Source: Verrucomicrobiota bacterium (GTDB taxonomy: Bacteria > Verrucomicrobiota > Verrucomicrobiia > Opitutales > Seribacteraceae). Taken from it: DNA of 64,000 nucleotides. Below are positions 28,201 through 46,322 of the stretch, one piece after another (the first letter of the stretch is position 1; each line of letters begins with the position of its first letter). Location: assembly GCA_027622665.1 (NCBI GenBank), contig JAQBYT010000004.1, positions 32,001 through 96,000 on the forward strand, read 5' to 3'. The notes below the pieces were generated by a model that saw only the letters and a program-made list of their open reading frames with translations, did no database searches and was not told the origin of the DNA. Both the position numbers and the translations under genes were made by a program.

Positions 28201-30026
28201 GCTTGAAGGTCACTCCCGCCGGTACCCCCGCCACCGATGGCTCCTTCACGGTGGACGTTGATCCGGGGGTTCTCAACCTGCAGGGAATCTCCGAAACAGG
28301 CTCGGGATACGATGGGGCCACTCCCGAGTCAGCCCCCAACGTAACCATCACTGGAGCGGACAAGGGAACCGCTGCAGGAACCGCCACCGTGCGTGCGGAC
28401 GGCAAGCTGGACATAGCGTTCACAGGCACCCCGACGGGCACGGGCAACCTGACCCTGACCGTGGACCCCGGCGTCATCCGAAATCCCGCCGACCTCGTCG
28501 GCATCGCCAACCCGACCAACCTCTACGACCCCGCTGAGCCCGCACCGACCGTCACCATCACAGGAGCGGACAAGGGAACCCTTGCGGGAACCGCAACCAT
28601 TCGGCCTGACGGAAACGTAAATGTGGCGCTGGCAGGGATCCCCGCGGGGACGGGCAACTTGACTGTAGCAGTAGCCGACGGGCGAGACAAGGCGCCCGCG
28701 AACCTAGCGGGCATAGGATCAGGCTACGATCCGGGAGAGGCAGTTCCTGCAGTCACCATAACCGGAGCGGACGCGGGAACTCTTGCGGGAATTTCAACCA
28801 TCAACGCGAACGGCACCATCGACGTCGCCTTCTCCGGAAATCCCTCCGACATAGGGAACCTCACCGTGGCTGTGGCAGACGGCGTAGTTCGCAAGCCCGC
28901 CGACCTAACGTCCATAGGATCAGGATACGACCCCGCCGAGCCGGCGCCGGCAGTGACCTTTGCAGGAGCAAGCGCGGGAACGCTCTCGGGAACCTCCTCT
29001 ATCAATGGTGACGGCACCCTGAACGTGACCCTTGCCGGCGCTCCCACAGACACGAACGACGTCACGATGAACGTTGCAAACGGTCTACCGGGAGTAGCCG
29101 ACCTGACGGGCATTGGTTCAGGCTACACGACAGGTGATCCTGCTCCGGGCGTAACGGTTTCGGGAGCTAATGCGGGAACCTTGGCGGGAACTGCCTCGAT
29201 CAATGCCAACGGCACATTGGACGTGAACTTTACGGGAAATCCAAGCGACACCAACAACGTCACGGTACAAATCGCCGACGGGCTCGCACGAGTTGCAAAC
29301 CTCTCGGGCGTGGGGTCAGGATACGATCCGGGTGAGGCAGCCCCGGGCATCAGCATCACCGGAGCCAACAAGAACACCCTGAACGGCGCCGCGACAATCA
29401 ATGCAAACGGTACTTTAGATGTAAGCTTCGGCGGCAACCCGGCGGACTTCAACAGTCTGGGAATTCAAGCTGCAGACGGAGTCACTCAAGCCCCGAACGC
29501 ACTGACGGGACTGGGCGGGAATCACGATCCGGGTTCACCTCCTGCCGTTACCATTACGGGAGCGGACAAGGGTACGCTTGCCAGTGTAGCTAGCGTGAAT
29601 GCAGACGGCACTGTCAACGTCTCATTCACGGGGAGTCCATCAGGCCCAGGCCCATTGACTGTGCAAATCCCAGGTGGAGTTGCCTCGAATCCCATATCAA
29701 ACCAATACCTACTGGAAATAGATGGAGACTTGTGGGATTATACAGTGGCTGAGTTTGTTGCATTCACCTCGATAATCGCGGATGCCAGAGCCCAAAACGG
29801 CGCCGAGCAAAACTCCCTCAACACCAATTGGAATAGCCTTTCCACAAGAATCAACCAACTGGAACAAGCCAATGGGAGGATAACCGACACAGACTTTGCA
29901 GAAGAAATGACCAAACTGGGAAAATCTCAAATCCTCAGCCAGTCTGCATCCTCTATGCTTGCAAAATACAATCGAACCCAAACCGAGGCCCTCCTGAAGT
30001 TGCAAAACTTAGCAGGCAACCTCTAG
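25227..30026 (+). CDS. Giant flagellin (flagellin N- and C-terminal domains; PQQ-like propeller, LamG and repeat stalk inserted); single in-frame TAG at 27738-27740
   Basis: N-term LGRLSSGTKINTSEDDAGGLAVS...NVQNGLSFLETQD...KFNGISLF; C-term RAQNGAEQN...GRITDTDFAEEMTKLGKSQIL; ORFs 25227-27740 and 27810-30026 share a frame. Confidence 0.88.
27190..29695 (+). repeat. About nine ~63-70-aa Gly/Thr-rich repeats inside the flagellin
   Basis: Consensus xADLxGIGSGYDPxExAPxVTITGADxGTLAGTATINADGTLDVxFTGxPSxxGNLTVxVADG. Confidence 0.9.
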
Positions 30027-30629: not shown

Positions 30630-30651
30630 TTTAATATGACTTTTATTGCTT

Positions 30652-31158
30652 ATGGAGCTTTCCGAAGAATTTATTCTTGAGCTGACTGAGGTGCAGCAAA
30701 GGCTTTTCGGCTTCCTGTTCAAGCGATTGGCTGATCGCGAGCAAGCTCGTGAGGTGTTGCAGCGGACCAACCTGGTTTTGTGCCGTAAGGCAGACAACTA
30801 CGAATCAGGAACTAATTTCAAGGCATGGGCGATGACCGTGGCCAACTACGAAGTGATGGCCTATCGCAAAACGCAGGTTCGCGAACGCTTGGTGTTCACC
30901 GCCGAAGTGGATGCCATGATTGGTCCGGATGAAGACGGGAGATCCTCCGCTCAATCGGCTCACCTCAGTCACTGCCTGCAAGGCATGTCGTCGAAAAACC
31001 GGGAACTTCTTGATTGGCGATATCAAGGAGAGCACACCATGGAGAAGATCGCCGAGGATATTGGCAGCACGATCGGGGCGGTGAAGGTGAAACTGCATCG
31101 CCTGCGCCGACAATTGCTGGGCTGCATTCAAAACCGCATGCAAGAGGACGGAATATGA
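30652..31158 (+). CDS. ECF sigma-70 factor (Rhodopirellula/Verrucomicrobium type)
   Basis: AREVLQRTNLVL...GTNFKAWAMTVA; region 4 IAEDIGSTIGAVKVKLHRLRRQLLGCI. Confidence 0.93.
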   Translation: MELSEEFILELTEVQQRLFGFLFKRLADREQAREVLQRTNLVLCRKADNYESGTNFKAWAMTVANYEVMAYRKTQVRERLVFTAEVDAMIGPDEDGRSSAQSAHLSHCLQGMSSKNRELLDWRYQGEHTMEKIAEDIGSTIGAVKVKLHRLRRQLLGCIQNRMQEDGI

Positions 31159-32513
31159 AAGAAGAAGAAAAGTTATGGAAAGATGAACTGGATGCCCTGC
31201 TCGGCAAATTGGTGGACGAGGGTCTCACGGTTGCGGACAAGGCGCGGTTGAACGAGATCCTGCAAACCGAACCCGGGGCTCGGGAGTTCTACCATGAATA
31301 CCTCGATCTTCATGGTGCCCTGGAGGAACGTCTGGGTGTCCCGGACTTCTCCCCACTCAACGCCGTAATCGATCCCGAAACCAAGGAGGAATCCAAACCA
31401 GTCTTCATTCCTTTCGGAAATTGGGGATGGGCGGTAGCGGCCGCGGTGGTGATTGGGTTGTTTATCCAGTTTTTTCTGGAGCAAGAGGAAACCGAGCCCG
31501 AGCTACCTATTGCTCAAATTACGAAATTAAGCGGTCCTCTGCTTTGGACGGGTGATGGTGGCCAAGTGAATCGTAACCTGCAAGCAGGCTCCAAACTCTT
31601 CGGTGGAACCATCGAGGGCATGGCTCCCGACGCTTGGTTCGAACTGGAGTTCAATGATGGCTCGCAAGTCGTGATTGCAGGCAACTCCATGCTGACCATT
31701 TCCGACCTCGGACAAAAGGAGCTGCGTCTCAGGGAGGGGAGCTTTTCCGCCAACGTCATGCCCCAACCCAAAGGCAAGCCCATGCTCGTGCGCACCCGCT
31801 CCGCCTTGTTTGAAGTCATGGGCACCAGATTCAGCGTGGATGCCGAGTTGTCTTCCTCCACGCTCACGGTCAACGAAGGCAAGGTGAGGGCCACCCGTCT
31901 CAGTGATGGCAGCTCAGTGGAAGTAACTGCCAAGCACCGGGTCGTCGCTGCCTTGGATTGCGAACTCGTACCCGAAAAAATGCCGGAGTCCGTTACCCTT
32001 TGGCAAAGCCATTTGGAAAACGGAAGAAAACGCAATCACGGCGAATGGATGCCGGCCAATGGGGCGGAGCCGGCTCACCTGAATACCGTGCCTTATACCT
32101 TGCCCGCCAAGGACGACCGTAAGCAAAGAACCATCCACACCTTGAGCATGCCGGTTTCTCAAGGCGACCACCCCCCGGTTATCTTGCAACCTGAAACCAA
32201 AATTCGCGTTCGAGGCAAGATCGCTTCGAGTCATCCCATTTGGTTTGGTATGACGCTAAGTCGTCAAAACGGCGATTTCGCCGGCCGCTTTCAGATCCGT
32301 CGATCCGCCGAAGAATTCCAGAGTGGGGAACCGTTCGAGGTCGTCCTGAACCTAAGTGACTATGAACTGGATCCCTCCCTTGCCCAATGGGCGGACTCTT
32401 TGCCTAAGACACCCTACGGATTGATCGTCAAGGGCGTTTGGTGCCACACGCTCTGGGATCCGGCAGGCTTGCAGGTTTCCGAAATGGCACTGATGACCCC
32501 TACCGATAAATGA
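31155..32513 (+). CDS. FecR-domain anti-sigma factor
   Basis: ATGA overlap with the sigma gene; RLNEILQTEPGAREFY; one TM segment; FEVMGTRFSV, VNEGKV. Confidence 0.88.
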   Translation: MKEEEKLWKDELDALLGKLVDEGLTVADKARLNEILQTEPGAREFYHEYLDLHGALEERLGVPDFSPLNAVIDPETKEESKPVFIPFGNWGWAVAAAVVIGLFIQFFLEQEETEPELPIAQITKLSGPLLWTGDGGQVNRNLQAGSKLFGGTIEGMAPDAWFELEFNDGSQVVIAGNSMLTISDLGQKELRLREGSFSANVMPQPKGKPMLVRTRSALFEVMGTRFSVDAELSSSTLTVNEGKVRATRLSDGSSVEVTAKHRVVAALDCELVPEKMPESVTLWQSHLENGRKRNHGEWMPANGAEPAHLNTVPYTLPAKDDRKQRTIHTLSMPVSQGDHPPVILQPETKIRVRGKIASSHPIWFGMTLSRQNGDFAGRFQIRRSAEEFQSGEPFEVVLNLSDYELDPSLAQWADSLPKTPYGLIVKGVWCHTLWDPAGLQVSEMALMTPTDK

Positions 32514-33205
32514 AGAGACATCCGGACACTTCCCCGAAAACAGGGAGCAAAAACGCGTTGTTATTTGCTGTCTTTCTGGGCTTCGTTGCGGTAGCGACGC
32601 CTGATGGCTTTGGGCAAGCCAATTCCAAGCCAACCAGCATCGAGGAGAAGACGAAGATTCATCGCCTGGCGACAACCAAGCGGGCGGTATATGATGCCTT
32701 CACATACCTGAACCGCATACCGGAAAAAGCGGAGGAAGGTGAGGAGATACTCGATTTCACTGCACGCGTATACAGTCGACTCGCTAATCAGGAAGGGCGT
32801 ATCCTCATCAAGCTACCACCGGGCATGAACCGCGAAGCCTACCTCGGTTACAAGACCTTCCTTAGCACCGACGCCAAGGTGAGCAACGGCAATTGCGTCG
32901 CCTGTCACGCACCTGAAAAATTCACCGACCTGAAGACACACGTGTTGAGTGGAGGCGCTAAAGCCCTGCCTACCCCTTCCCTGCGCAACATGAACAATCG
33001 CAATGTCCATATCCCCAAAGTGCTGCGTGCCAAACTCGCTGCGGCCAAGGAGCCCGGCGCATCGAAGGATTATCAGTTGATTAAGCTGAACAAGTCCGAC
33101 CTCACACATCTCGAGGCGTTCCTCAAGCAGCTTAATGACGTGGACGACATAAATTTTCGGGAACTTATTCTTAAAGCCAAGGTTTTGGATCCCTCAGGAA
33201 ATTAA
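32510..33205 (+). CDS. Exported monohaem cytochrome c resembling the C-terminal half of CcP/MauG
   Basis: GNCVACH...FTD...PTPSLRN. Confidence 0.7.
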   Translation: MKRHPDTSPKTGSKNALLFAVFLGFVAVATPDGFGQANSKPTSIEEKTKIHRLATTKRAVYDAFTYLNRIPEKAEEGEEILDFTARVYSRLANQEGRILIKLPPGMNREAYLGYKTFLSTDAKVSNGNCVACHAPEKFTDLKTHVLSGGAKALPTPSLRNMNNRNVHIPKVLRAKLAAAKEPGASKDYQLIKLNKSDLTHLEAFLKQLNDVDDINFRELILKAKVLDPSGN

Positions 33206-33206
33206 T

Positions 33207-35144
33207 ATGAAACAAAAAATAACGCTCACTATCTTAGCTTTCGCGTTGTCGGTTTCGCTGGCGGACGCTAACGAGATTCGCGGCAAGACCACAAAAGATG
33301 GCAAAGGCGTTGGCGGTGTGTTCGTTTCCGCTCACGATACGGAAAACCGCAAGGCCTCGGGCGTATTTACCGCCTCCGACGGTACCTATGTCATCGATGG
33401 TCTGCGCGAAAAGGATTATCGGGTACGCGCACGGCAAAAAGGCCTGAACGACGTTTGGCTCGACGAGATCACCGCCGGTTCCAAAGGCATCGAAATCAAG
33501 ATGACGAACGCCACCGGATGGAAACTTGAACGCCAGCGTACGGCCGATAGTGCCTTTGGTATGCTCAAATTTGATGATGTCCGCGACAAGCTGAACTTCA
33601 AAATGTTCTGTGCCTACTGTCACCAGATCGGCACGGTTGGCTTCCGTACCCCGGAAGAACCGGTGGACTGGGAAACCATGATCCGGCGAATGGATGGGTT
33701 CGGCGGCCTCTATTCGCATACCAAGCGCACAATCGTAAAGCGCATCATGGACTCTTACACAGGGGAGGCCGTCGACAATTGGCTGAAGTATGTGCCTCCA
33801 CCCCCTCCTGCTGGAGCAGCCACCAAGGCGAAGATCACCTGGTGGGAGATGGGCAAACGCTACGAGTCGCAGTACCATGACATCGATCTCACTCCGGATG
33901 GTCGATTGATCTATGCGGTAAATATAACAAAGAATTATATTGTGACCGTGGATACCAAAACCGACAAACAGGTTTACAAAAAATTCCCCCGTGGCTCTTA
34001 CGGAGCACATTCCATTGAGCCGGACAACGACGGCCACATGTGGGTTACAATGTGTGCCTCAGGCCAGATGGCAAAGTACGACATCCATAATAAAGAGATT
34101 GAGGTATACAGTAGTGCCGAGGCTCCTGCGAAACGGGGCGGATACCCGCACACCTTACGGATCAACCCGAAGGATCCCGAGGGACTCATCTGGTACACGG
34201 ATGCCGGACGCAACTCGGTATTTTCCTTGCACCCGAAAACCAAGCTCGTGAAGGAATACCATCTCTTAAGCGCAAACCAAGCCGTCGCCGCAGGGAAAGG
34301 AGAGAGTAAAGGTATCACGCCCTATGGCATCGATTTCTCTCCGGTCGACGGCATGATCTGGTACAGCAAACTCAACGGCAACCGCATCGGACGTATTGAC
34401 CCGAGCAAGCTCGACGGCGACGTCAAGGAATGGAATCCCCCTTTCCGTGGTCCAAGGCGACTGCACGTTGCCCCGGACGGAATAATTTGGGTCCCTGGTT
34501 TTGGCTCGGGTGTATTTGGGAAGTTCGATCCCGATACCGAGAAATGGCTTGTGTACGACCTGCCGAACAAGGACAACCAAATCCCCTACGCCCTCAACGT
34601 TGCCCCTAATGGGCATGTGTGGATCTGTGGGACCGGCAACGACACCATTCATCGATTCAATCCAAAGACTGAGATGCTCGTAACGTATCCTTTGCCCAAC
34701 AGGGTAAGCTACACGCGAGAGATCGAGTTCGACACTGATGGCAACGTATGGACTCCAACAAGCGGGCCCTCCCGTCATATGGAGACCGGCTATGGCGCCA
34801 TCATCAAGATTGAGCCCAACGACCTGAGTGACTCAGGTGGCATCAAGCTCAAGGGTTATATGCCTGACCGCAGCAAGCTCACCTACGAGCAACCCCGTAG
34901 GATTAACTACAATGGTTCCAACGCCAAGTTACTTACCCGGATTGCCAAAATTCAACTCCCACAAGCCTACCTCAACGGCAAACACCAGCCATACGTCGAT
35001 GCACGAATGAAGAATTTAACCAACCAACAAAAACACCGCATCCATATTCTATGGCAGGAACTGCGTAAGTCTGACCCGGACATGCCCAATGCCGGTCAAT
35101 CCTTTGTGCGGATCATGGAGTACGTGTTCAATAACGTTAAATAA
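33207..35144 (+). CDS. Exported protein: carboxypeptidase-regulatory-like domain + c-type haem + Vgb-like beta-propeller + unrecognised C-terminal helical module
   Basis: FTASDGTYVIDGL; CAYCHQIG; IWYTD, PYGIDFSPVDGMIWY, GPRRLHVAPDGIIWV, PYALNVAPNGHVW. Confidence 0.8.
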   Translation: MKQKITLTILAFALSVSLADANEIRGKTTKDGKGVGGVFVSAHDTENRKASGVFTASDGTYVIDGLREKDYRVRARQKGLNDVWLDEITAGSKGIEIKMTNATGWKLERQRTADSAFGMLKFDDVRDKLNFKMFCAYCHQIGTVGFRTPEEPVDWETMIRRMDGFGGLYSHTKRTIVKRIMDSYTGEAVDNWLKYVPPPPPAGAATKAKITWWEMGKRYESQYHDIDLTPDGRLIYAVNITKNYIVTVDTKTDKQVYKKFPRGSYGAHSIEPDNDGHMWVTMCASGQMAKYDIHNKEIEVYSSAEAPAKRGGYPHTLRINPKDPEGLIWYTDAGRNSVFSLHPKTKLVKEYHLLSANQAVAAGKGESKGITPYGIDFSPVDGMIWYSKLNGNRIGRIDPSKLDGDVKEWNPPFRGPRRLHVAPDGIIWVPGFGSGVFGKFDPDTEKWLVYDLPNKDNQIPYALNVAPNGHVWICGTGNDTIHRFNPKTEMLVTYPLPNRVSYTREIEFDTDGNVWTPTSGPSRHMETGYGAIIKIEPNDLSDSGGIKLKGYMPDRSKLTYEQPRRINYNGSNAKLLTRIAKIQLPQAYLNGKHQPYVDARMKNLTNQQKHRIHILWQELRKSDPDMPNAGQSFVRIMEYVFNNVK

Positions 35145-35146
35145 TC

Positions 35147-35851
35147 ATGAAGATCCTTGCTTTGTTACTCCTTTCGACCGCGTCTGCAATGGCCGCGGAG
35201 GTTTCCGGCGTCATCAAGCTTGACGGCCCACAACCCAAGCGTCCGCCGCTACAGCTTACCCCCGAAAGCCGCAAGCTCTACGAGGGGCTTCCCTACCCAC
35301 AAGACGAAGTGGAACTGGTTAATGCCAAGAGTGAAATCCAGAACGTCTTTGTCTATATCCGCAAAGGTCTGCCCGCTGGTAAGACCTACCCTGCGCCGAA
35401 AAAGGCGGCCTTGCTCGACCAGCAACGGTCCATGTTCCGTCCGCGCATTCAAGGCCTGTTCGTCGGTCAGGAATTCACAATGCGCAACAGTGATCCCATC
35501 ATCCATAACGTGCGCTCTCTTTCGCAGGAAAACCGGCCCTTCAACGTTGCTCAACCAGCCGGCACGCCCGACCGCTTAAAGCGGTTCAGCGACAAGGAAG
35601 GTCCCATCGAGTTGCGCTGTGACTACCACCGTTGGATGCGGGCGTTTGTTTTCGTAATGGAGCATCCCTTCTTCGGAGTCACCGATGCGCAAGGCCGATT
35701 TACCATCAAGAATCTCCCACCCGGCGAATACGTTTTGGCCACTTGGCATGAGTCATTTGGTGAAAACAAGCAAACCATCCAAGTTGCCGTTGACGGATTA
35801 AAGAAGGTAAACTTCACTTACAAACCGAAGAAAGGATTGAATTTCGAGTGA
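35147..35851 (+). CDS. Exported cupredoxin-like/carboxypeptidase-regulatory-like protein
   Basis: NSDPIIHNV...CDYHRWM (possible type-1 Cu ligands); TDAQGRFTIKNLPPGEY. Confidence 0.75.
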   Translation: MKILALLLLSTASAMAAEVSGVIKLDGPQPKRPPLQLTPESRKLYEGLPYPQDEVELVNAKSEIQNVFVYIRKGLPAGKTYPAPKKAALLDQQRSMFRPRIQGLFVGQEFTMRNSDPIIHNVRSLSQENRPFNVAQPAGTPDRLKRFSDKEGPIELRCDYHRWMRAFVFVMEHPFFGVTDAQGRFTIKNLPPGEYVLATWHESFGENKQTIQVAVDGLKKVNFTYKPKKGLNFE

Positions 35852-37860
35852 GAAGCCTCTGCCTAATACTGCTTGCGTTGCTGAACGTTTCCTTGGTCGC
35901 CGCACCGAGGGAAATAGGTAATCCGTCCTTTCTCAGCCCGCATGCCCGGCCTATCGTTGCGCACGGGGATTACGTTTTCGTGGCCAACACTCCCTCGGAC
36001 ACCGTCGACGTCATCGACGCGAAATCGCGCAAAATCATCCACCGCATCGACGTGGGCATCGATCCTGTCAGCCTGGCCGTTCGTCCCGATGGCCGTGAAC
36101 TGTGGGTGGCCAATCACGTTTCCGATTCGGTCAGCGTGATTGACCTCGATCAGTCGAAAAAAACCTTCATGCACGTCGTCGCCACCGTTCAAGATATCAA
36201 CCCAAAGACCAAGGCCACCCGCTTCGACGAACCCATTGGGATTGCCTTTGCCAACGACAGGAAGGCTTACGTCGCCCTGTCCTCAGAGAACAAAATCGCG
36301 GTGGTGGACGTCGCTAGCCGAAAAGTGACCAAGGGCTTGCCGGTCCGGGCTCAGGACCCCCGGGCCATCATGGTGCGCAACGGCAAACTGTACGTCCTTC
36401 CTTTCGAGTCCAACAACAAGACCCAGTTGTCCGGCGGATACAAGATCGATGGCAAGCTCGTTACCTTCAACGCCCATGAGCATTCCATTGCCAATAACAA
36501 CGTTTTGTCCTTGGGTCACGTGACCGATATCGTGAAGCACCCGCGCGTTCCCGACCGGGACTTGTTCGTATTCGACGTGAAGACCGACAACCTCATTCAG
36601 ACCGTCGATACCCTCGGCACCTTGCTTTACGGCATGACTGTGGATTCCAAGGGTACGGTCTTCGTTGCCCAGACCGATGCCAGGAACGACGTCAACGGTC
36701 GGGCAGGGACCAAAAAGCACGGTCTCAAGGAACTGGGCAACCGGGCTTTTCTCAACCAAGTCACCAAGGTTCGCTTTGAGGGAGGCAAGGCCCGCAAGCC
36801 CGAGTTTCTCGATCTGGAGCCTTTGCCCCCGCAAAACCCGGCGGATGGGATGGCCTTGGCCACACCTTTCGCCATAGAGGTGAGCGGGGACGATTCCACA
36901 CTCTTCGTTTCGGCGGCGGGTTCGGACAAGGTTTTCTCGATGGATGCGGTTAGCGGTAAAGTAATTGGACGGGTCAAGGTCGGGGCGGTTCCCCGTGGGA
37001 TCGCCCTTTCGCCCGCTCATGGTGGTAAGCCCAAGCGGGCCTGGGTCCTCAATGCGGTGGAGAACTCGGTTTCCGTTCTCGACGTCTCCAATCCCAGAAG
37101 CCTCCGAGTGGTCCGGACGATTCCCCTTGAAGATCACTCCCATCCCGAGTTCAAGGCCGGGCGGATTGCTTTCAATCGGGCCGATGCTTCATCGACCAAG
37201 ACTTTTTCCTGCGCCAGTTGTCACCCGGACGGGCATACCGATCAATTGCTCTGGGTCTTGAAGACTCCGATTGTTTCGGGGGGCAACCAGATCATGCCCC
37301 GTTCCACCATGCCGGTGCGCGGCCTGCGCGACACTGCTCCTTTTCACTGGGACGGCATCCCGGGCGATCCCTACGGAGGCACCAACAGCGCCAGCGTACG
37401 CAAGGCGGTCAAGCCAAACAGCGATCCGAACGACCCGACCAGCGCTCCTCGCCACTTGGTGGACGCGGGTTTGGCCTCGACCATGAAGCTGGTGGGGGAC
37501 GACTCGACAAACGACGAGGGGAAAGCGGGCTTGATGACCTCCGCGGAACGGGACTCCCTGTCCAAGTTCCTGCTCGGAGTGACTTACCCACCTGCTCAAC
37601 GCCGAGCCTATGAGAATGAGCTGAGTCAAGAAGCGGAAGCAAATCGTCCTACCTCACCATCAGGTCGACTATGTCCGTCAGGTTTCGTGGCACAAATCCC
37701 CATACGGCGAGTTGCTCAAGAAGATCGACGCCATGCCGGCGCCGAAAGGCATCCCGGTCAACAAGACGCTCGACAAGCACTTCAAGAAGCGAATGGCGAG
37801 CTTCACCGAAAAGCAGCGAGGCCGGTTCAATACCTTGCGCCAAGGAATGGATCGCGTTGA
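35848..37860 (+). CDS. YncE/YVTN beta-propeller fused to a cytochrome c peroxidase-like haem domain; 3' end apparently truncated near 37635
   Basis: VGIDPVSLAVRPDGRELWVAN repeats; SCASCHPDG; APFHWDG; tail after ELSQEAE looks out of frame. Confidence 0.75.
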   Translation: MRSLCLILLALLNVSLVAAPREIGNPSFLSPHARPIVAHGDYVFVANTPSDTVDVIDAKSRKIIHRIDVGIDPVSLAVRPDGRELWVANHVSDSVSVIDLDQSKKTFMHVVATVQDINPKTKATRFDEPIGIAFANDRKAYVALSSENKIAVVDVASRKVTKGLPVRAQDPRAIMVRNGKLYVLPFESNNKTQLSGGYKIDGKLVTFNAHEHSIANNNVLSLGHVTDIVKHPRVPDRDLFVFDVKTDNLIQTVDTLGTLLYGMTVDSKGTVFVAQTDARNDVNGRAGTKKHGLKELGNRAFLNQVTKVRFEGGKARKPEFLDLEPLPPQNPADGMALATPFAIEVSGDDSTLFVSAAGSDKVFSMDAVSGKVIGRVKVGAVPRGIALSPAHGGKPKRAWVLNAVENSVSVLDVSNPRSLRVVRTIPLEDHSHPEFKAGRIAFNRADASSTKTFSCASCHPDGHTDQLLWVLKTPIVSGGNQIMPRSTMPVRGLRDTAPFHWDGIPGDPYGGTNSASVRKAVKPNSDPNDPTSAPRHLVDAGLASTMKLVGDDSTNDEGKAGLMTSAERDSLSKFLLGVTYPPAQRRAYENELSQEAEANRPTSPSGRLCPSGFVAQIPIRRVAQEDRRHAGAERHPGQQDARQALQEANGELHRKAARPVQYLAPRNGSR

Positions 37861-37930
37861 TCCCAACATGGAAAATCGCGGGCTTTCGTACCTCAAGATT
37901 CTCGAATACATCCATCATAATGAGAAGTAG
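37625..37930 (+). pseudogene. Orphan 3' gene fragment carrying the shared helical module
   Basis: Frame open from 37625: ...PYGELLKKIDAMPAP...DPNMENRGLSYLKILEYI. Confidence 0.65.
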
Positions 37931-37959
37931 ATGGAGTGAATGCTGACTGAATAAATAAC

Positions 37960-40900
37960 GTGAAACCCATCCCCGCATTTTTATGCTCCCTGTTGCTACT
38001 TTGCCAAGGCTTTGCCAAGGACAAACAGCCCAATGTCGTCACTCTACTCGTCGACGACCTCGGCTACCGCGACCTCGGCTGTTACGGTGGTCCCGTCAAG
38101 ACCCCGGTCCTCGACAAGTTGGCTGCAGGGGGTGTGCGCTTCACCGATTTTCACTCGGGAGCGCCTTCCTGTTCCCCCTCGCGCGCCACCTTTCTCACGG
38201 GCCGCAACCATCGTCGCACCGGAGTCTACTCCGTCATCACCGAACGCCTTCACAAGATGCATCTCTCGAAGAGCGAAACGACCATCGCGGAGGTGCTCAA
38301 GGAAAACGGCTACGGCACCGCCCACTTCGGCAAGTGGCACCTAGGCATGCCCGTCCAAAATCGCAAGAATCCCACCCCCGGCGATCATGGCTTCGACTAC
38401 TGGTTCGGCCTCGTCAATGGCCCGGGCCCTAGCCACAAGAACCCGACCCAGTTTCTGCGCAATGGTAAACGCGTGGGACAGATGAAAGGCTACTCCTGCC
38501 AAATCGTCGTCGATGAGGCCCTTACCTGGCTCGATGAAAAGCGCGACGACGACGAGCCCTTCTTTCTCAATCTCTGGTTCAACGAACCCCACGCCCCGAT
38601 CGCGGCGCCCGACGAGATCGTCTCCCAGTATGGCGCGCTCAACGATCAAGCCGCGATCTACAGCGGCACCATCGACAACACGGATCGGGCGATTGGGCGA
38701 CTCGTCGCCAAGCTCGAGCAACTCGGCGAGCTCGACAACACCATTATTCACTACTCCTCCGACAACGGCAGTTACCGTCAGGAGCGCAGCGGAGAACTGC
38801 GTGGCCAGAAAGGGTCGCTCTTCGAAGGCGGGCACCGCGTTCCCGGGATCATTTGCTGGAAAGGCGGAATCCCCGGCGGTCGCGTCGAGGACGAGCCTGC
38901 AGGAGCGGTCGACCTACTCCCGACCCTCTGCGGATTGATCGGTATCGAAAAACCCGCGAAGGTCCATCTCGACGGCTCCGACCTCGCTCCTCTGCTCACC
39001 AAGTCAGGCAACTTCGAGAGGCATCAGCCCCTCTTCTGGATGAGTGAGGGACCCATGGTCATGAGAGTGGGGGATCACACTCTTTTTGCATCCGTCACTG
39101 CGAAATCGTCGATCGACTTTAAAGTCGCCGATCGACTCACGGAGCAAATCAAGGAAGTCCTCGGCGATGATCTCGAGAAAGTGCTGGACGGAATGGATGT
39201 TAAGGATCTTCGCTCCCGCCTATTTAATCACGGGAGATTAGCCAATCCCGAGGCCGACCGACTGCGGAACCAACTTCGGGACTTGTACTACTTCAACGAA
39301 GCGTGGATCCCCGAACTCAAAAAGAGCGGGATCGGCCGTGTTCAACTGTATGACCTATCGAAGGATCTCGGTCAGCAAAACGACATTGCGAAAGAGCGCC
39401 CCGAACTCGTCGCCCGACTGAAAAAGCAGGCCGCTGCCATTCACAGAAGTGTCATGGCCGAAGCTCCGGAATGGCTCACCCCTGAAGAACAGGCCGCCGC
39501 GAAGAAGCCTCAAGCAGATTCACCTGATCGGCCCGCCACCGGAGCACCCGAGACCGATACCGCGAAGCTCCTCGCCCGCATCGACAAGAATGACATTCCC
39601 AAGGTCTACCACGGAAGCCGCCACCAGGCCTACGTCGACAAGGTCATGGCCGGAATCAAACCCGAACAGCGTGCCCGGGTCGGCCAACTCTGGAAAGAAA
39701 AGCGCCGCCTCGATTCTGACATGTCCAACCCGGGAGCCTCTTTCGTCAGGATTCTCACCTACGTCGCCGGAGAGGCAGGAAAAAGCAAATCGCCCAATGT
39801 TGTTTTCTTGCTTGCCGATGACCTGGGCTGGAAGGATATCGGCTGCTATGGCGGCCCGGTGAAGACGCCCGCACTCGATACACTCGCCGCCAAGGGGATG
39901 CGCTTTACTGATTTCCATTCGGGTGCGGCGGTCTGTTCGACTTCTCGAGCCACAATCCTGACCGGACGGCATCACATTCGTGCGGGCCTGTACAGCTGGA
40001 TCATGAATCACATCCAGCATTCGCATCTACTCGAACGCGAGATCACGCTCGCCGAAATGCTCAAAGCCCACGGCTACACCACTGCACACATGGGCAAATG
40101 GCACCTTGGTACGTCCTCAGGTAAATTGAAAAAACCGACCCTCAACGATCACGGGTTTGATTACTGGTTCGCAACTGCCAATAACGCAAACCCAAGCCAC
40201 CTCAATCCAGTCAACTTTGTTCGCAATGGCAAACGCCTTGGCCAGCTCAAAGGCTACTCCTGTCAACTCGTGGTCGATGAAGCCATTCATTGGCTGGAAA
40301 AGGAACGCGACCCAAAAAAGCCATTCTTCCTGAACCTGTGGTTCCACGAACCGCATGCGCCAATTGCCGCACCGGACGAACTCGTGAAGCCCTATGGCCC
40401 ACTCAAGAATCCCAGCGCTATCTATTCGGGCACCATCGATAAGACCGACCGCGCCATCGCGCGACTCCTCAAGAAGCTGCACGCCATCGACAAGCCTGAG
40501 AACACCATCATCATTTATTCCTCAGACAACGGCAGTTACCGCCACGATCGCGTGGGTCATTTGCGCGGCATCAAGGGCAGTAACTATGAGGGAGGCATCC
40601 GTGTGCCGGGCATTTTTTATTGGCCCGGTCACATCCCTTCCGGACGAACCGAGGATGAACCTTCGGGTCTGGTGGATTTACTCCCCACAATCTGTGGATT
40701 GGTGGGCATCAATAAACCTGAGGGTGTACACTTGGATGGAGCCGATCTCTCACCACTGTTGACTGGAAAAGGCAAGTTCAAGCGGAAGCAACACATGGCC
40801 TGGATTAGCCCACTCTCCGGACCCGCGCTGGCCATTCGTGATGGTGATTGGAGCTTATGCGCTCACGTAGCCTATGAGTTTCCCAAGGACAAAAAAAAGA

Positions 40901-41259
40901 TGGCTCAGCTTTATAAGGAAATTGAGGCCACCCTACGCCGCAATGGCACTTATGAAGACGAATTACGGGGAGAAACACTGGCCAGTCAAATTCATGAGGG
41001 TTTTAAGGATAAGGAAGCAGAAAAACTACGCGGGCAGTATATTCAACTCAACATGTTCAATGAAAACTGGATTCCTGCCATAAAAAACGGCCACTACCAC
41101 CGGTTCGAATTATACAACCTTGCCAAGGACCCTTCGCAGAAGAAAAACATAGCTAAAGCCCATCCGGAAGTTTTTAACCGTTTAAAACATGAGCTACTCA
41201 AGATCAACGCCAGCGTCATGGCCGATGGCCCGGACTGGCACCTAAAAGAAAACCCATGA
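37960..41259 (+). CDS. Tandem double sulfatase with the shared helical module in the linker
   Basis: Two full domains: DDLGYRD/CSPSRA/GKWHLG and DDLGWKD/CSTSRA/GKWHLG; 1099 aa. Confidence 0.92.
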   Translation: MKPIPAFLCSLLLLCQGFAKDKQPNVVTLLVDDLGYRDLGCYGGPVKTPVLDKLAAGGVRFTDFHSGAPSCSPSRATFLTGRNHRRTGVYSVITERLHKMHLSKSETTIAEVLKENGYGTAHFGKWHLGMPVQNRKNPTPGDHGFDYWFGLVNGPGPSHKNPTQFLRNGKRVGQMKGYSCQIVVDEALTWLDEKRDDDEPFFLNLWFNEPHAPIAAPDEIVSQYGALNDQAAIYSGTIDNTDRAIGRLVAKLEQLGELDNTIIHYSSDNGSYRQERSGELRGQKGSLFEGGHRVPGIICWKGGIPGGRVEDEPAGAVDLLPTLCGLIGIEKPAKVHLDGSDLAPLLTKSGNFERHQPLFWMSEGPMVMRVGDHTLFASVTAKSSIDFKVADRLTEQIKEVLGDDLEKVLDGMDVKDLRSRLFNHGRLANPEADRLRNQLRDLYYFNEAWIPELKKSGIGRVQLYDLSKDLGQQNDIAKERPELVARLKKQAAAIHRSVMAEAPEWLTPEEQAAAKKPQADSPDRPATGAPETDTAKLLARIDKNDIPKVYHGSRHQAYVDKVMAGIKPEQRARVGQLWKEKRRLDSDMSNPGASFVRILTYVAGEAGKSKSPNVVFLLADDLGWKDIGCYGGPVKTPALDTLAAKGMRFTDFHSGAAVCSTSRATILTGRHHIRAGLYSWIMNHIQHSHLLEREITLAEMLKAHGYTTAHMGKWHLGTSSGKLKKPTLNDHGFDYWFATANNANPSHLNPVNFVRNGKRLGQLKGYSCQLVVDEAIHWLEKERDPKKPFFLNLWFHEPHAPIAAPDELVKPYGPLKNPSAIYSGTIDKTDRAIARLLKKLHAIDKPENTIIIYSSDNGSYRHDRVGHLRGIKGSNYEGGIRVPGIFYWPGHIPSGRTEDEPSGLVDLLPTICGLVGINKPEGVHLDGADLSPLLTGKGKFKRKQHMAWISPLSGPALAIRDGDWSLCAHVAYEFPKDKKKMAQLYKEIEATLRRNGTYEDELRGETLASQIHEGFKDKEAEKLRGQYIQLNMFNENWIPAIKNGHYHRFELYNLAKDPSQKKNIAKAHPEVFNRLKHELLKINASVMADGPDWHLKENP

Positions 41260-43688
41260 ACCGGTTCATCACCATCACCCTGCTGCTTATCGGCCTGCCC
41301 GCCCATGGACAAGCCTTTAAGGAGGCCGTGAAACCATTGGTGGAAGCGTCCTGCATTGATTGCCATGACGCGGATACGGAGACCCCTTTGAATTTCGAAA
41401 AGATCGGGCACGACCTGTCCGATGCCGCCACCTTTCGGCAATGGGTGAAGGTCTTTGACCGGGTGGACAAGGGGGAGATGCCACCCAAGAAGAAAAAGCG
41501 GCCGGATCCGGCGCTGAAGAACAAGGCGTTGGCGGCCCTGGAAGCAGACCTGAGAGCGGCCAACCTCAAACAACAGGACGCCGAGGGGCGAGTGGCTGCC
41601 CGGCGACTCACCCGACTGGAGTTTGAATACACCCTGCAGGATATACTTGGGATAGGTGGAAACCTAAAGCGGCATTTACCACCTGAGAATGCCTCGGCCA
41701 AGTTTGCCAACGTTGCTGAAAAACAGGGGATTTCGCCTGTGCATATCCGCAGCTACCTCAAGGCCGTAGACGTCGCGCTGGACGAGGCCATCATGCTCGG
41801 TCCCAAACCCCGCGCCGGAGGGCGCGATATCGATTACCGCAACAACAGGTATAGCAGCATGTGGTTCGACCGTCCGATGCGCAACGGTGGGCAAACCGTC
41901 ATGCGCACGGATGATGCCTATGTGATGTTCAGCTACCGCAGAGAACCGTTCGTCGCCCGATCCGACCACATGGGGTATCACTTTCCTTACCCCGGGCTCT
42001 ATCGCATTACTGCCGAAGGCGCCGGATACCAGGCCAAGACTCTCATCGGTTTCGGTCTATACAAGGCCAGTGACAAGCACGGCAACACCGAGTTGATTGG
42101 CAACTTCGAGATCAAGCCCGGCGAATCGCGCAAGATTGAGGTCACCCAATATTTCGAACCGGGTGAATTCTTTTTTCCCGCAGGTCTGAGCCTCAATGCG
42201 GCGCCTGACGGGAAAATGATCTACATGATGCGCGTCAAAGGCGCGCGCGGTTACAAGGGCGAAGGGCTCGCCATCAAATGGCTGAAGATCGAGGGGCCGT
42301 TGGAGGAAACGTGGCCTCCAACGCGCACACGCGATCTGCTAACCGGTGTGCCGATCGTGTGGGTGCCGAAACATCGCATCTACTGGACGCACCCAACCAA
42401 GGAACCTAATGAACATCTGCGCGACATCGTCAAGCAGCTCGCGCCCAAGGCCTTTCGCAGACCGGTGACGGACGCGGAAATCGAATCCTTTGTCTCTCTT
42501 GCAAAACCGCATCACCCCAAGGACCAACCGATGCATAAAATGGTTCGTGCCCCCCTGCGGGCCATGTTCAGTTCGCCACAGTTTCTCTTTCATGGCGGCC
42601 AACCCGGTCCGTTAGATGATCACGCGCTGGCCACCAGACTCTCTTATTTCCTCTGGAAATCGGTCCCTGACGAGCAACTGTCCGCACTGGGCCATGATAA
42701 CAAGCTAAAGGACCCGAAGGTTCTCGCGAATCAAGTCAATCGAATGCTCAAGGACCCAAGGTCGAACCGATTCGTCGATGATTTCCTGGACGGTTGGTTA
42801 CACATAAGCGATATCGACGCCACCACTCCCGACGAAAAGCTCTATCCCGAATACGGAGACACTTTGCGTCAGGCGATGTTGGCCGAGTCCCGTCTCTTTT
42901 TTCGCGAACTGATCGACCGCAACCTTGCAACCCGCAACTTCATCGACTCGGACTTCACCTTCGTCAACCGCAGGCTGGCCCATCACTATGGCTTGCCCGA
43001 AGTTCCCGGAGAACGGATGCGTCGCGTGAAGCTTCCCGCCGACAGCGCGCGTGGCGGACTCATGACGCAGGCCAGCATCCTTAAGGTCACAGCCAACGGG
43101 ACCCTCACCTCGCCCGTGAAACGCGGGCACTGGGTACTAAACTCGCTCTTAGGTACGCCACCCCAACCGCCGCCTCCAACCATCAGCGCTCTGGAACCGG
43201 ACATCCGCGGAGCGGTAACCATCCGGCAGACGCTCGCCAAGCATCGTGACGTAGCCAGTTGCGCCAGTTGTCATCAGCACATCGATCCGCCCGGATTTGC
43301 ACTGGAGAGCTTCGATCCCATCGGTGGTTTTCGCCATCGCTACCGCACAACCGGCAAGGGTGATTGGACCAAAGAGCGGTACCTTACGGCATACCACTTG
43401 GGGCACCCTCTCTACCGTTGGGGCCTCGACGTGGACGCCAGCGGTTCGACGGCCAGTGGAGAAAAATTTAGAGGTATCCGCCGCTTCCGAGATTTGTTAC
43501 TGAAGGAGGAGGTGCAGGTGGCCCGCAATTTTGTATCGCAACTGATCACCTACGCAACCGGAGCCGAGGTGCAGTTTGCCGACCGCGCGGAGGTGGAACG
43601 AATGCTCGCATCGGCAAAGGCGGATGGCTACCTTGTACGCGACCTGCTTCACGCCGTAGTGCAAAGCCGATTATTTTTAAACAAATGA
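41256..43688 (+). CDS. DUF1587/1592/1588/1585-family c-type cytochrome protein
   Basis: CIDCH, RRLTRLEFEYT, LATRLSYFLW, TSPVKRG, CASCHQHIDPPGFALESFD. Confidence 0.9.
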   Translation: MNRFITITLLLIGLPAHGQAFKEAVKPLVEASCIDCHDADTETPLNFEKIGHDLSDAATFRQWVKVFDRVDKGEMPPKKKKRPDPALKNKALAALEADLRAANLKQQDAEGRVAARRLTRLEFEYTLQDILGIGGNLKRHLPPENASAKFANVAEKQGISPVHIRSYLKAVDVALDEAIMLGPKPRAGGRDIDYRNNRYSSMWFDRPMRNGGQTVMRTDDAYVMFSYRREPFVARSDHMGYHFPYPGLYRITAEGAGYQAKTLIGFGLYKASDKHGNTELIGNFEIKPGESRKIEVTQYFEPGEFFFPAGLSLNAAPDGKMIYMMRVKGARGYKGEGLAIKWLKIEGPLEETWPPTRTRDLLTGVPIVWVPKHRIYWTHPTKEPNEHLRDIVKQLAPKAFRRPVTDAEIESFVSLAKPHHPKDQPMHKMVRAPLRAMFSSPQFLFHGGQPGPLDDHALATRLSYFLWKSVPDEQLSALGHDNKLKDPKVLANQVNRMLKDPRSNRFVDDFLDGWLHISDIDATTPDEKLYPEYGDTLRQAMLAESRLFFRELIDRNLATRNFIDSDFTFVNRRLAHHYGLPEVPGERMRRVKLPADSARGGLMTQASILKVTANGTLTSPVKRGHWVLNSLLGTPPQPPPPTISALEPDIRGAVTIRQTLAKHRDVASCASCHQHIDPPGFALESFDPIGGFRHRYRTTGKGDWTKERYLTAYHLGHPLYRWGLDVDASGSTASGEKFRGIRRFRDLLLKEEVQVARNFVSQLITYATGAEVQFADRAEVERMLASAKADGYLVRDLLHAVVQSRLFLNK

Positions 43689-44929
43689 AACTAAACCGAA
43701 GAACCTTTTTACGAAGCACCGGCGTGGCGATGGCGTTGCCGTGGCTGGAATCGATCCAACCGGCTTGGGGCAAGGAGCTGGCTCCGCCGAAACGGATGGT
43801 CTTCATTTGCAACACGCTTGGCCTGCACGCGCCAGCGTTGTTCCCCAAAAAGACCGGGGCCGACTACGAATTGACCGATTACCTGAGCATCATCAAGGCA
43901 CACCGGAAAGACTTTACCTTATTCTCCGGGCTTTCCCACCCGCAACAAGGTGGCGAACACCTGTGCGAGATGACTTGGCTGAGCGCAGCCCCAAACCCCG
44001 GCATGGACGGCTTCCAAAACTCGATCTCGGTCGACCAATACGCGGCCGGCAAACTCGGCTACGTCACGCGCTTTCCGTCCGTGTCACTAAGCAGCGACTC
44101 CTCAACCAGTCAGTCCTATACCGGTAGCGGGGTAATGATACCCGCCGAGCAACGCCCATCACACATGTTTGCGAAAATGTTCCTGCGCGGCAAACCGGAG
44201 GAGATCGCTCGTCAAAAACAAAAGCTGGCCGAGGGCCGCAGCGTGCTGGACGAGTTGCTCAGCCAAACCAGGATACTGCTCAAGAACGCGCCGGGAGCCG
44301 ACCGCGAGCGGTTGCAGGAATATTTCGAATCCGTCCGCACCGCGGAAAAGAACCTCGCCGAGGAACAGGTCTGGTTCGATCGTCCCAAGCCGGAAGTGCA
44401 GGCCAAGGCTCCGCCGGACATCCACGACAAGACCGACCTCGTCGGCCGCATCCGGCTGCTGTTCAATCTCGTTCCTCTGATCATACAGACTGATTCCTCG
44501 CGCGTGATCAGTGTCGTCATCCAAAATAACCACGGCGTGCCGCAGGTCGAAGGCGTCGATTCCGAGCACCACAACCTCTCGCATCACGGGCGCGATCCCA
44601 AGCGAATTCAGCAATTGCTCAAGATCGAACGCGCCATTATGGGTTGTTTCGACGAATTCCTCACTGCCATGAAAACCAAGCGCGAGGGGGGAGGCACATT
44701 GCTCGACAACACCACCACGCTTTTCGGCAGCAACTTGGGCAACGCCAGCGCCCACGATCCACGCAACAACCCCATACTGCTCGCCGGGGGCGGGCTCAAA
44801 CACGGCCGTTATCTTGCCCACGATGCCAAGAACAACACGCCGCTCTGCAACCTCTTCGTGCATATGCTCAACCAGATGAACCTCAATACCGATCAGTTTG
44901 CCAGCAGTACCGGCGAACTAACTCTTTAA
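43685..44929 (+). CDS. DUF1552-family protein (Tat)
   Basis: LNRRTFLR, ISVDQ, HHNLSHHG, LLDNT, PILLAGG; usual partner of DUF1592. Confidence 0.9.
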   Translation: MKLNRRTFLRSTGVAMALPWLESIQPAWGKELAPPKRMVFICNTLGLHAPALFPKKTGADYELTDYLSIIKAHRKDFTLFSGLSHPQQGGEHLCEMTWLSAAPNPGMDGFQNSISVDQYAAGKLGYVTRFPSVSLSSDSSTSQSYTGSGVMIPAEQRPSHMFAKMFLRGKPEEIARQKQKLAEGRSVLDELLSQTRILLKNAPGADRERLQEYFESVRTAEKNLAEEQVWFDRPKPEVQAKAPPDIHDKTDLVGRIRLLFNLVPLIIQTDSSRVISVVIQNNHGVPQVEGVDSEHHNLSHHGRDPKRIQQLLKIERAIMGCFDEFLTAMKTKREGGGTLLDNTTTLFGSNLGNASAHDPRNNPILLAGGGLKHGRYLAHDAKNNTPLCNLFVHMLNQMNLNTDQFASSTGELTL

Positions 44930-44930
44930 C

Positions 44931-46322
44931 ATGAAAAGCTTCTCCACACTTTGCGTCGCCCTGTTGGGCATGAACTTATCTGCAAACGCCGACGACTTCA
45001 CCAAGGCGAAAGCCTCCAACTGGCATCATTGGCGTGGGCCGGATGCAAACGGAGTCGCCACTACGGCGAAACCACCCACCCACTGGAGTGAGAAAAAGAA
45101 CATCCGTTGGAAAGCGCCGGTCGAGGGCTTTGGAACATCCACTCCCATTGTGTGGGGTAACAAAGTCTTTCTTCTTACTGCCATCAATACCGGCAGGGTG
45201 GATCCTTCCCTCCCGCGTCCGGAGGATCAACCCAAGCGCGTCTTCGACATCACGCACCCGAACACGACCTACGAGTTCATCGTACTTTGCTTGGACCGCA
45301 AGACGGGGAAAACACTTTGGCGGAGGGTGGTCACCAAAATGATTCCTCACGAGGGTACCCACCGGGACAACAACTTTGCCTCGGCATCGCCCTCCACCGA
45401 TGGCGAGCGCCTATATTGCTGGTTCGGTTCGGCGGGCTTGTTTTGCTACGACTTGGAGGGTAAGAAACTTTGGGAGCGCAACCTGGGCAAGGTCAAGATC
45501 GGGGCGAGCCTGGGGGAGGGGTGCTCACCAGTTTTGCACAAGGGCAAACTGGTTGTGGTTCGAGACAATCGGGGACAGTCGACCATACATGTTTTGAATT
45601 CCAAAAATGGAGAAACCATTTGGATGAAAAACCGGAACACCCGCAACGGATGGTCCACGCCTGCAGTCGTTGAGCATGAAGGCAAAACTCAGGTGATCAC
45701 TACCGCCTCCAGGCAAAAGGAGGGGGATCGTTCGAATCCCGGCAAGGTGATCAGTTATGATCTTGAGAATGGGAACGTAATCTGGGAATGCTCCGGTCTG
45801 ACTGACAATGCGATCCCATGCCCAATCGTTGAAGACGGGGTTGCTTACTGTATGACGGGATACCAAGGTTTTTCCGTACTCGCCGTGCCCATTTCGGGGA
45901 AGGGAGACCAGTCGGAGAATATCCTATGGAGAGGGAATTTGGGAACCCCCTACGTTCCGTCCGCCGTACTTTATGACGGGCTTCTTTATTTTACCCAGTC
46001 CAACCAGGCCATCCTTTCCTGTGTCGATGCAAAAACCGGTAAGGTTCTCATGGAGCGAACCCGGATCAAAGGTTTGTCCAACGTCTATGCCTCGCTCACC
46101 GGGGCGGGTAATCACGTCTACGTGTTCGGGCGCTACGGAAAGACAGCCGTGATCAAGAGAACGGGCAAGTTCGACTTGGTGTCTACGAACGTCTTGGCCG
46201 ACCGCTTCGACGCATCGCCCGCGGTAGTAGGCGGTCAACTTTTCTTGCGTGGACATAAATTTCTCTACTGCATCGAGTCAGATTCTAATCCCACTAATCA
46301 AAACAAGGAGACAATCAGATGA
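44931..46322 (+). CDS. PQQ-binding-like (BamB-like) beta-propeller
   Basis: NWHHWRGP, STPIVWG, ASASPSTDGE, WSTP, ASPA. Confidence 0.88.
   Translation: MKSFSTLCVALLGMNLSANADDFTKAKASNWHHWRGPDANGVATTAKPPTHWSEKKNIRWKAPVEGFGTSTPIVWGNKVFLLTAINTGRVDPSLPRPEDQPKRVFDITHPNTTYEFIVLCLDRKTGKTLWRRVVTKMIPHEGTHRDNNFASASPSTDGERLYCWFGSAGLFCYDLEGKKLWERNLGKVKIGASLGEGCSPVLHKGKLVVVRDNRGQSTIHVLNSKNGETIWMKNRNTRNGWSTPAVVEHEGKTQVITTASRQKEGDRSNPGKVISYDLENGNVIWECSGLTDNAIPCPIVEDGVAYCMTGYQGFSVLAVPISGKGDQSENILWRGNLGTPYVPSAVLYDGLLYFTQSNQAILSCVDAKTGKVLMERTRIKGLSNVYASLTGAGNHVYVFGRYGKTAVIKRTGKFDLVSTNVLADRFDASPAVVGGQLFLRGHKFLYCIESDSNPTNQNKETIR

Follow-up and report, generated by a model that had tools for sequence, protein, structure and literature searches.

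Dockerins, which are part of the cellulosome, consist of two tandem Ca-binding EF-hand-like repeats, and the LTXXQ proteins Spy and CpxP, with two LTXXQ motifs each, have ATP-independent chaperone activity. In type II secretion the choice of folded cargo is still open, with the C-terminal domain of GspC as a leading adaptor candidate; this domain varies between species, is required for some cargo (PMC12369372) and is normally a PDZ domain or a coiled coil (PMC3169554). Genes for planctomycete-specific domains (PSCyt among them) and DUF1552 are frequently close to sulfatase genes, in a neighbourhood of unknown function (PMC5615132). The subject here is a module of about 70 residues. It occurs three times in a 64,000-nucleotide stretch of DNA from a Verrucomicrobiota bacterium (positions 32,001 to 96,000 of contig JAQBYT010000004.1, assembly GCA_027622665.1), the whole of which is termed the window below and whose coordinates are used throughout. 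The module is real, an as yet undescribed mobile domain, and its kinship with secretion clamps is traceable and surprising.

The initial annotation likened the module to dockerins. The comparison holds loosely, for an appended portable module: like dockerins, it has some 70 amino acids, is helical and is appended by linkers to the ends of unrelated exported enzymes. There are also differences. A duplicated Ca-binding EF-hand motif, sought with two motif patterns, is present in 0 of 147 distinct copies taken from genomic loci; no Pfam family is matched; the loci examined revealed no scaffold bearing receptor-domain repeats; the module is found in diderm bacteria of the Planctomycetota-Verrucomicrobiota-Chlamydiota (PVC) group; and its closest traceable kin is the tail of proteins with the GspC/PilP fold. 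Without that motif it is not a dockerin, though it would be dockerin-like in its working if the docking model considered below holds. With the Spy/CpxP/Metal_resist (LTXXQ) proteins it shares a basic helical hairpin, a [LMF][TS]xxQ turn (in 83 of the 147 copies) and weak matches to hidden Markov models (HMMs), but these matches are below cut-off, the motif is single, and the module is a fused domain rather than a free chaperone. At the family level the best value for Spy/CpxP, E 0.0035, falls short of membership and came from clamp-tail proteins only. The gene neighbourhood is the same as that of the planctomycete-specific domains PSD1-5 and PSCyt1-3 and of DUF1552 clusters; the module, however, is none of those Pfam families and is far rarer.

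A conserved domain family without a name

The three copies lie where they were first described (Table 1), and the window genome has exactly these three, all in the window. Copies 1 and 3 are indeed identical at 32 of 67 positions without gaps, and the shared signature that had been proposed agrees with the 15 invariant columns. Local alignment of the three copy pairs gave scores of 160, 93 and 81, as against maxima of 46, 45 and 48 in 2000 shuffles for each pair. Copy 2 is the more divergent, as had been noted (the conserved Tyr, His-Gln and Trp are missing), and copy 3 does come after sulfatase domain 1, though internally, with a second sulfatase domain following. What does not stand is that the three carriers in the window are unrelated proteins. 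Copies 1 and 2 derive from paralogues of one family, since the DNA that contains copy 2 matches a second Vgb-haem gene, and, copy 2 being the orphaned tail of that paralogue, the window has two host families. The observation with which the initial annotation began is thus partly confirmed.

No named domain had been recognised, and none emerged: at E<=0.1 the three copies match 0 Pfam and 0 NCBIfam families, and comparison of 39 copies with curated families gave a best single match of E 0.001, found in no other copy. A profile of the 39 copies had no match under E 0.4 among the PDB sequences, and full-text literature searches listed no paper that describes the domain. Likeness to the hairpin of Fe/Mn-superoxide dismutase (E 0.02-0.4) was put down to chance on a single short His-Gln-Tyr stretch, and the top score for the module in the ESM Atlas, 0.81, is taken as a lead only.

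Structure prediction, which had been suggested as a check, yields with AlphaFold a four-helix bundle (pLDDT 94.5, pTM 0.82), the helices being predicted in copy 3 at module residues 2-7, 17-30, 33-49 and 56-69. When the predicted module, a small helical bundle, was searched against 48,161 representatives, the best Z was 4.8 and no chain reached Z>=5; no dockerin, Spy or SLH entry is among the best 50 fold matches, which marks neither novelty nor difference. Conservation is highest at G57 (100%), Q21 (94%), H20 (93%), N55 (90%), D25 (89%) and W43 (86%), and the mean net charge over the 147 copies is +4.2. The dN/dS of the module is mostly <0.3. It is 0.04-0.30 in the Vgb-A proteins (computable in 4 of 6 pairs), 0.05-0.10 in 5 of 6 Vgb-B pairs and 0.10-0.59 in the sulfatases, where the linker has 0.35-0.71 and the module the lower value in 8 of 8 pairs; all pairs include the window sequence, so they are not independent. 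Judged by these ratios the module is under purifying selection. It represents a real, conserved domain family that has no name.

The proposed HMM search of databases returned 139 representative proteins at E<=0.001, with 112 at E<=1e-10 (HMMER search space 1.84 billion representatives; counts rest on a 50%-identity library and on genome scans); two weak repeat-like matches (P0128 and P0139) were removed before the wider profile was built. Though not confined to this locus, the module is rare: it occurs in 5 of 40 relatives, each from the window genome's family, in 13 of 151 genomes of the order of a Verrucomicrobiales carrier and at 37 loci of the species collection. A sample of 400 other genomes of the phylum yielded none, and on viral contigs 0 of 47 pattern matches were confirmed. 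The named carriers are Verrucomicrobiota, Planctomycetota and one Lentisphaerota metagenome-assembled genome (MAG), besides two MAGs labelled Proteobacteria that are possibly mis-binned; among named records, MAGs of Opitutia and other Verrucomicrobiota come closest. Among the Planctomycetota is the cultured Stieleria bergensis, strain SV_7m_r of which has sulfatase and Vgb-haem genes that are tagged with the module. Sulfatase-type copies are 87-89% identical between phyla, which points to movement of the cluster between PVC phyla by transfer, and the cluster, headed by genes for an extracytoplasmic function (ECF) sigma factor and FecR, is likely mobile.

At least six unrelated host families carry the module in genomic loci. 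The domain upstream of the 147 distinct copies is a sulfatase in 37, Vgb-haem in 36, a DUF1080/3-keto-disaccharide hydrolase in 26, an HR domain (see next section) in 12, a PQQ propeller in 10 and a small cytochrome in 1, with none of these markers in the remaining 25; the module forms the protein's C-terminus in 94 of the 147. Other hosts are Gfo/Idh/MocA oxidoreductases with Tat-like signals, FGE-sulfatase, HEAT and beta-lactamase-like proteins, and some Vgb-B proteins have one copy at either end. A crude signal-peptide rule is passed by 81 of 101 hosts as against 571 of 1164 long open reading frames (ORFs) of the window genome, and the hosts are likely exported. The idea of a portable module on unrelated exported proteins is better borne out beyond the window than within it and is supported across genomes. 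Tagged hosts are mostly in one ECF/FecR-headed cluster common to PVC phyla. The window genome has 100 sulfatase-like ORFs, of which only 1 is tagged, and 34 PQQ-like ORFs, of which none is; the tag is therefore a property of the cluster, not of exported proteins generally, and the module is restricted to one cluster type.

Kinship with GspC/PilP-fold clamp proteins

Nine of the database representatives are proteins of 200-290 amino acids in which an unnamed beta domain stands ahead of the module. The top four structural matches of this domain, as predicted, are GspC-HR/PilP structures: 3OSS_C (Z 6.3, rmsd 2.8, 62 aligned), 3JC8_Pa (6.1), 2IVW (5.4) and 4AV2 (5.1). Foldseek agrees, with probabilities of 0.99 and 0.97. 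In the predicted models the HR beta-sandwich fold is therefore found in these HR-plus-module proteins of relatives, not in the hosts of the window. The HR proteins match secretin-adjacent Opitutales proteins with a profile probability of 91, and in the ESM Atlas one of the database proteins (P0019) matches unnamed Verrucomicrobiota clusters at 0.95-0.96, the nearest Pfam cluster being XpsN at 0.77.

The tails of the HR proteins form a series that runs from a generic, three-helix tail, in which most members end, by way of an intermediate tail to the full module. Profile comparison links the module to the intermediate tail with a probability of 98.3 (E 2e-14) and the intermediate to the generic tail with 97.6 (E 3e-12). 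On these alignments the module is homologous to the clamp tail, and it quite probably descended from the helical tail at the C-terminus of Verrucomicrobial GspC/PilP-fold proteins.

Relatives with the generic tail occur in the gene orders PilN-PilO-[HR]-GspE and pilin-GspK-[HR]-secretin (L082 and L083 among them), and generic-tail members adjoin a secretin gene at 6 of 29 loci, with flanks of about 1.5 kb considered. An alignment of the HR proteins matches 92 of the 151 genomes of the Verrucomicrobiales carrier's order, mostly via the HR domain. The HR-plus-module genes are directly behind FecR in the cluster type of the tagged enzymes, not in secretion operons. In each of the five genomes that combine HR with the full module there is also a module on a long non-HR frame, and HR plus full module is present in 0 of 140 genomes without such a frame.

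In this subset of carriers the module, behind an HR fold, occupies the slot of the variable C-terminal domain of GspC (EpsC, OutC, XcpP) and PilP. The resemblance has its limits. The tail of the HR-plus-module proteins is a bundle of 3-4 helices, not a PDZ domain or a long coiled coil (no PDZ family match was found for the module, which is predicted to be all-alpha with four short helices). Their N-termini look by eye like cleavable signal peptides, unlike the transmembrane anchor of GspC and the lipid anchor of PilP, and they are encoded by orphan genes within an enzyme cluster. The enzymes themselves bear this domain as well, which is not reported for GspC tails in passages of two accounts (PMC12369372, PMC3169554). 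What is newly defined is a mobile domain without a name and, behind it, a helical C-terminal domain, likewise without a name, in Verrucomicrobial GspC/PilP proteins, the latter a third type besides PDZ and coiled coil. Since the module occurs both in the GspC slot and on unrelated exported enzymes, it offers a small, direct and testable handle on cargo choice in type II secretion.

Several other GspC-like and HR genes came to light. In the window genome the type II secretion operon is complete and includes a GspC-like gene (G000:C47:210308-222050); there is also an orphan GspC-like paralogue with a Ser/Pro-rich tail (G000:C30:108677-109702), with four secretin matches genome-wide. HR genes of Verrucomicrobiales (L079, L177-L196) make up an unnamed GspC/PilP-fold family with signal-peptide-like N-termini and a three-helix tail; there are often several matches per genome, many members of the family are orphans outside secretion operons, and it merits a model of its own. 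A third HR paralogue in the same clusters (L102:7618-8610, L103:5917-6834, L161:5399-6304) has a different, highly conserved tail of about 160 amino acids, helical-repeat-like and without a Pfam match. The HR proteins of a single cluster can thus number three, each with a tail of its own.

A possible docking role and its alternatives

It is tentatively proposed, with a probability put at somewhat less than even, that the module is a self- or cross-associating docking tag that gathers the exported products of one cluster. The tagged enzymes would be exported by Sec or Tat, the module copies would bind each other, self or cross, in the periplasm, and sulfatase, haem-propeller, PQQ-propeller and 3-keto-glycoside enzymes would thereby be brought together there, an end that natural fusions among the same cluster proteins may also serve. 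Where a soluble GspC-like protein with the module is encoded, it would tie the assembly to the secretin through its HR domain; the window genome is without an HR-plus-module adaptor, and therefore only enzyme-enzyme or self association would be left there. In favour of docking are the likely ancestry in an adaptor slot, the presence on non-catalytic HR proteins, the confinement to one cluster and the frequency of fusions. The interpretation in the initial annotation is partly supported, in that the module is portable across genomes. If only self-associating, the module would be a compact assembly tag without a Ca motif for periplasmic enzymes of aquatic PVC bacteria.

A more specific, and decidedly unlikely, proposal is that of a like-binds-like address label for type II secretion, with tagged enzymes docking on the cluster's own soluble GspC-like adaptors. 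The adaptor's HR domain would hand the tagged enzymes to the host's secretin, and cargo and adaptor together would constitute a portable cassette moving between phyla. Were this true, type II cargo would be chosen by a discrete, transplantable 70-residue domain.

A number of observations weigh against the docking tag and its suggested origin. Subtypes cluster by host family, not by locus (32 label changes against 89.5 when shuffled, on a quick tree of 70 columns that is weakly resolved), and this pattern gives no sign of co-evolving pairs. The module is optional, being absent at some positions in close sulfatase, PQQ and Vgb-B relatives. There is a single module match in 16 of the 33 carrier genomes of the first scan, in one case on a 2-Mb contig of unstated completeness, so cross-docking of different enzymes is not required everywhere. 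HR plus module was found in 0 of those 33 genomes, no tail-bearing GspC-like protein was found in the window genome (93.5% complete), and the GspC-like proteins which that genome does have end in Pro/Ser-rich, disordered tails. That HR proteins and tagged enzymes occur together comes from their physical linkage within one cluster and does not count as independent evidence. As for origin, the structural Z-scores for the HR domain, at <=6.3, are under the tool's caution level of 8; the direct profile link between module and generic tail is modest (probability 70.5, score 27, with 8 for the reversed control and a shuffle maximum of 19), short helical hairpins matching easily; and the direction of descent, from generic tail to module, is inferred from an unrooted series.

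The conserved Tyr, His, Trp and Arg/Lys and the mean net charge of +4.2 over 147 copies would suit a shared ligand-binding accessory domain that, in the manner of a carbohydrate-binding module (CBM), holds the enzymes close to an envelope polymer or to an anionic substrate such as a sulfated or acidic glycan. Among the hosts are many sulfatases, DUF1080 hydrolases and Gfo/Idh/MocA oxidoreductases, which have the module on flexible linkers, ligand binding is workable with a single copy per genome, and sulfatase and PSCyt neighbourhoods have been proposed to act on carbohydrates (PMC5615132). The module is, however, also on GspC-like proteins without a catalytic domain and has ancestry in common with, or descends from, a secretion-clamp tail; no CBM family or fold match was obtained; and the Vgb-B subtype, though without the Tyr, His-Gln and Trp, is strongly conserved. 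Ligand binding is on balance unlikely. The basic, helical character of the module would suit a built-in Spy/CpxP-like holdase or solubility tag that aids the folding of large exported multi-domain enzymes. One LTxxQ-like motif is present in 83 of 147 copies, but two motifs are in just 3, and the weak matches, which for 8 of 39 copies are to Metal_resist (best E 0.055) and for the clamp-tail alignment are to CpxP and, in 4 of 49, to Spy (best E 0.0035), are every one far below cut-off. A holdase is improbable, a general folding aid not being expected on only 1 of 100 sulfatase-like ORFs.

Signalling is another possible role, in which the module would be a ligand of, or input to, the FecR-like anti-sigma factor of the cluster, and the ECF sigma factor would be informed of how abundant the exported enzymes are or what state they are in. 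The HR-plus-module genes come immediately after FecR, in four database proteins (P0018, P0028, P0035, P0104) the module is joined to FecR C-terminal sequence, and the FecR C-terminal domain typical of the cluster is in 23 of 33 carriers, in 10 of the 11 genomes that have long tagged frames and in only 10 of the 140 that do not. This co-occurrence, though, is explained by linkage in a mobile cluster, and three carriers of 93-96% completeness (G003, G013, G015) show no such FecR. Signalling is very improbable; on the strength of these three near-complete genomes FecR was rejected as an obligatory partner. The many fusions, deletions and frameshifts in the cluster, the optional nature of the module and its rarity (none in the sample of 400 other genomes of the phylum) might suggest a mere passenger, a stable small domain copied around a recombination-prone cluster, tolerated at protein ends and at most a spacer. 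Purifying selection near the level of the sulfatase core, host-specific subtypes maintained across phyla and near-invariant polar residues all speak against a passenger, which is quite improbable.

The probable deletion at copy 2 and the surrounding cluster

Copy 2 lies within a 101-codon frame (37625-37927) that is out of frame with the ORF for a YncE/cytochrome c peroxidase (YncE-CCP) protein. As far as about 37625 the window DNA corresponds to YncE-CCP genes (85% to L011, with a full-length frame of 1087 amino acids; the frames in relatives have about 1070-1150 codons), and from 37630 onward it corresponds to a second Vgb-haem gene at its 3′ end (95% at the DNA level to L046). The remnant of this paralogue B is without a start of its own in the sense of the intact gene, and the truncated YncE-CCP ORF continues out of frame as far as 37860. 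The junction is read as the product of a strain-level deletion at a 10-bp microhomology, with a loss that, from comparison of two different relatives, would be at least about 3.5 kb. Synthesis of copy 2 as the C-terminus of YncE-CCP through frameshifting was considered and rejected, the junction joining two genes via a deletion. Copy 2 probably makes no protein in the window strain, and two module copies of the window are likely expressed.

That the junction is an assembly error is unlikely. Four DNA runs (X4, X10, X11, X13) and, besides, one RNA run (X15) were compared. X4, possibly the source of the assembly, spans the junction within one 28-kb contig, while X10 and X15 cross it with only 20-23 bases left of 37630, which is below the tool's threshold of 31 bases. 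The intact Vgb-B allele is present in X11 and X13, and X10 has signs of both alleles, including an intact YncE continuation. RNA contigs cover the cluster in patches, copies 1 and 2 included, but this is not counted as expression because there was no silent-stretch control. Among the seawater runs the deletion in 35848-37930, by which YncE-CCP is truncated and most of Vgb paralogue B is gone, is polymorphic. The X11 and X13 contigs diverge from the window at 38674 and 44753, pointing to additional structural variants, these in the sulfatase and HXXSHH genes.

Table 1. Features of the module-bearing cluster, in window coordinates
Feature	Position	Strand	Remarks
ECF sigma factor	30646..31158	+	first gene of the cluster
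FecR-like anti-sigma factor	31155..32513	+	C-terminal domain typical of the cluster
Small c-type cytochrome	32510..33205	+	fused downstream of a module in several relatives
Host 1, Vgb-haem protein	33207..35144	+	645 aa
Module copy 1	34926..35135	+	C-terminal in Vgb-haem protein; stop codon 2 residues further on
CarboxypepD_reg protein	35147..35851	+	Cys-His-Met motif
YncE-propeller / cytochrome c peroxidase-like gene	35848..37639	+	5′ 597 codons, cut off by deletion
10-bp microhomology	37630..37639	.	at deletion junction; 9/10 bases common to both parent genes
3′ remnant of Vgb-haem paralogue B	37630..37930	+	~99 codons; 98% protein identity to L046 residues 682-780 (99 aa)
Module copy 2	37709..37921	+	divergent subtype; tail of deleted second Vgb-haem paralogue
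Host 2, tandem sulfatase	37960..41259	+	1099 aa; CSPSR at residue 71, CSTSR at 659
Linker rich in Pro/Ala/Lys	39481..39564	+	precedes copy 3; from sequence
Module copy 3	39565..39774	+	internal, flanked by sulfatase domains 1 and 2
PSD/PSCyt cytochrome gene and HXXSHH (DUF1552) gene	41256..44929	+
PQQ_2 beta-propeller	44931..46322	+	no tag in the window, tagged in relatives

The order within host 1 is signal peptide, CarboxypepD_reg, CXXCH haem site (CAYCH, residue 135), Vgb-type beta-propeller and module; the protein encoded next (35147..35851) is presumably cupredoxin-like. In host 2 the module is behind sulfatase domain 1 only, and in 3 relatives a PSD protein is fused behind the sulfatase-module unit. 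Genes of the operon are fused in many orders, to products of up to about 1800 amino acids with modules at the joints. Natural fusions of 1700-1830 amino acids (L158:4045-9531, L157:1-5442, L101:9151-14241, L018:5018-10213) unite much of the operon, as PQQ-module-Vgb-module-cytochrome-cupredoxin-like and as YncE-CCP-ankyrin-sulfatase-module.

The C-terminal domain of the FecR-like protein (about 160 amino acids, window 32010-32510) is itself unnamed, is single-copy in the genome and serves as a marker of the cluster type; in a close relative the FecR-like gene (L011:5352-7585) is frameshifted and broken by about 180 inserted codons. A very large flagellin-like gene, split by a stop codon, immediately precedes the cluster (25227-30026). 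At the other end, a 755-aa ORF (46319-48586) has no Pfam or NCBIfam match at E<=0.1, though its last 60 or so residues are taken to resemble an SHD1 domain, and homologues of it flank the related clusters L013, L087, L088 and L095.

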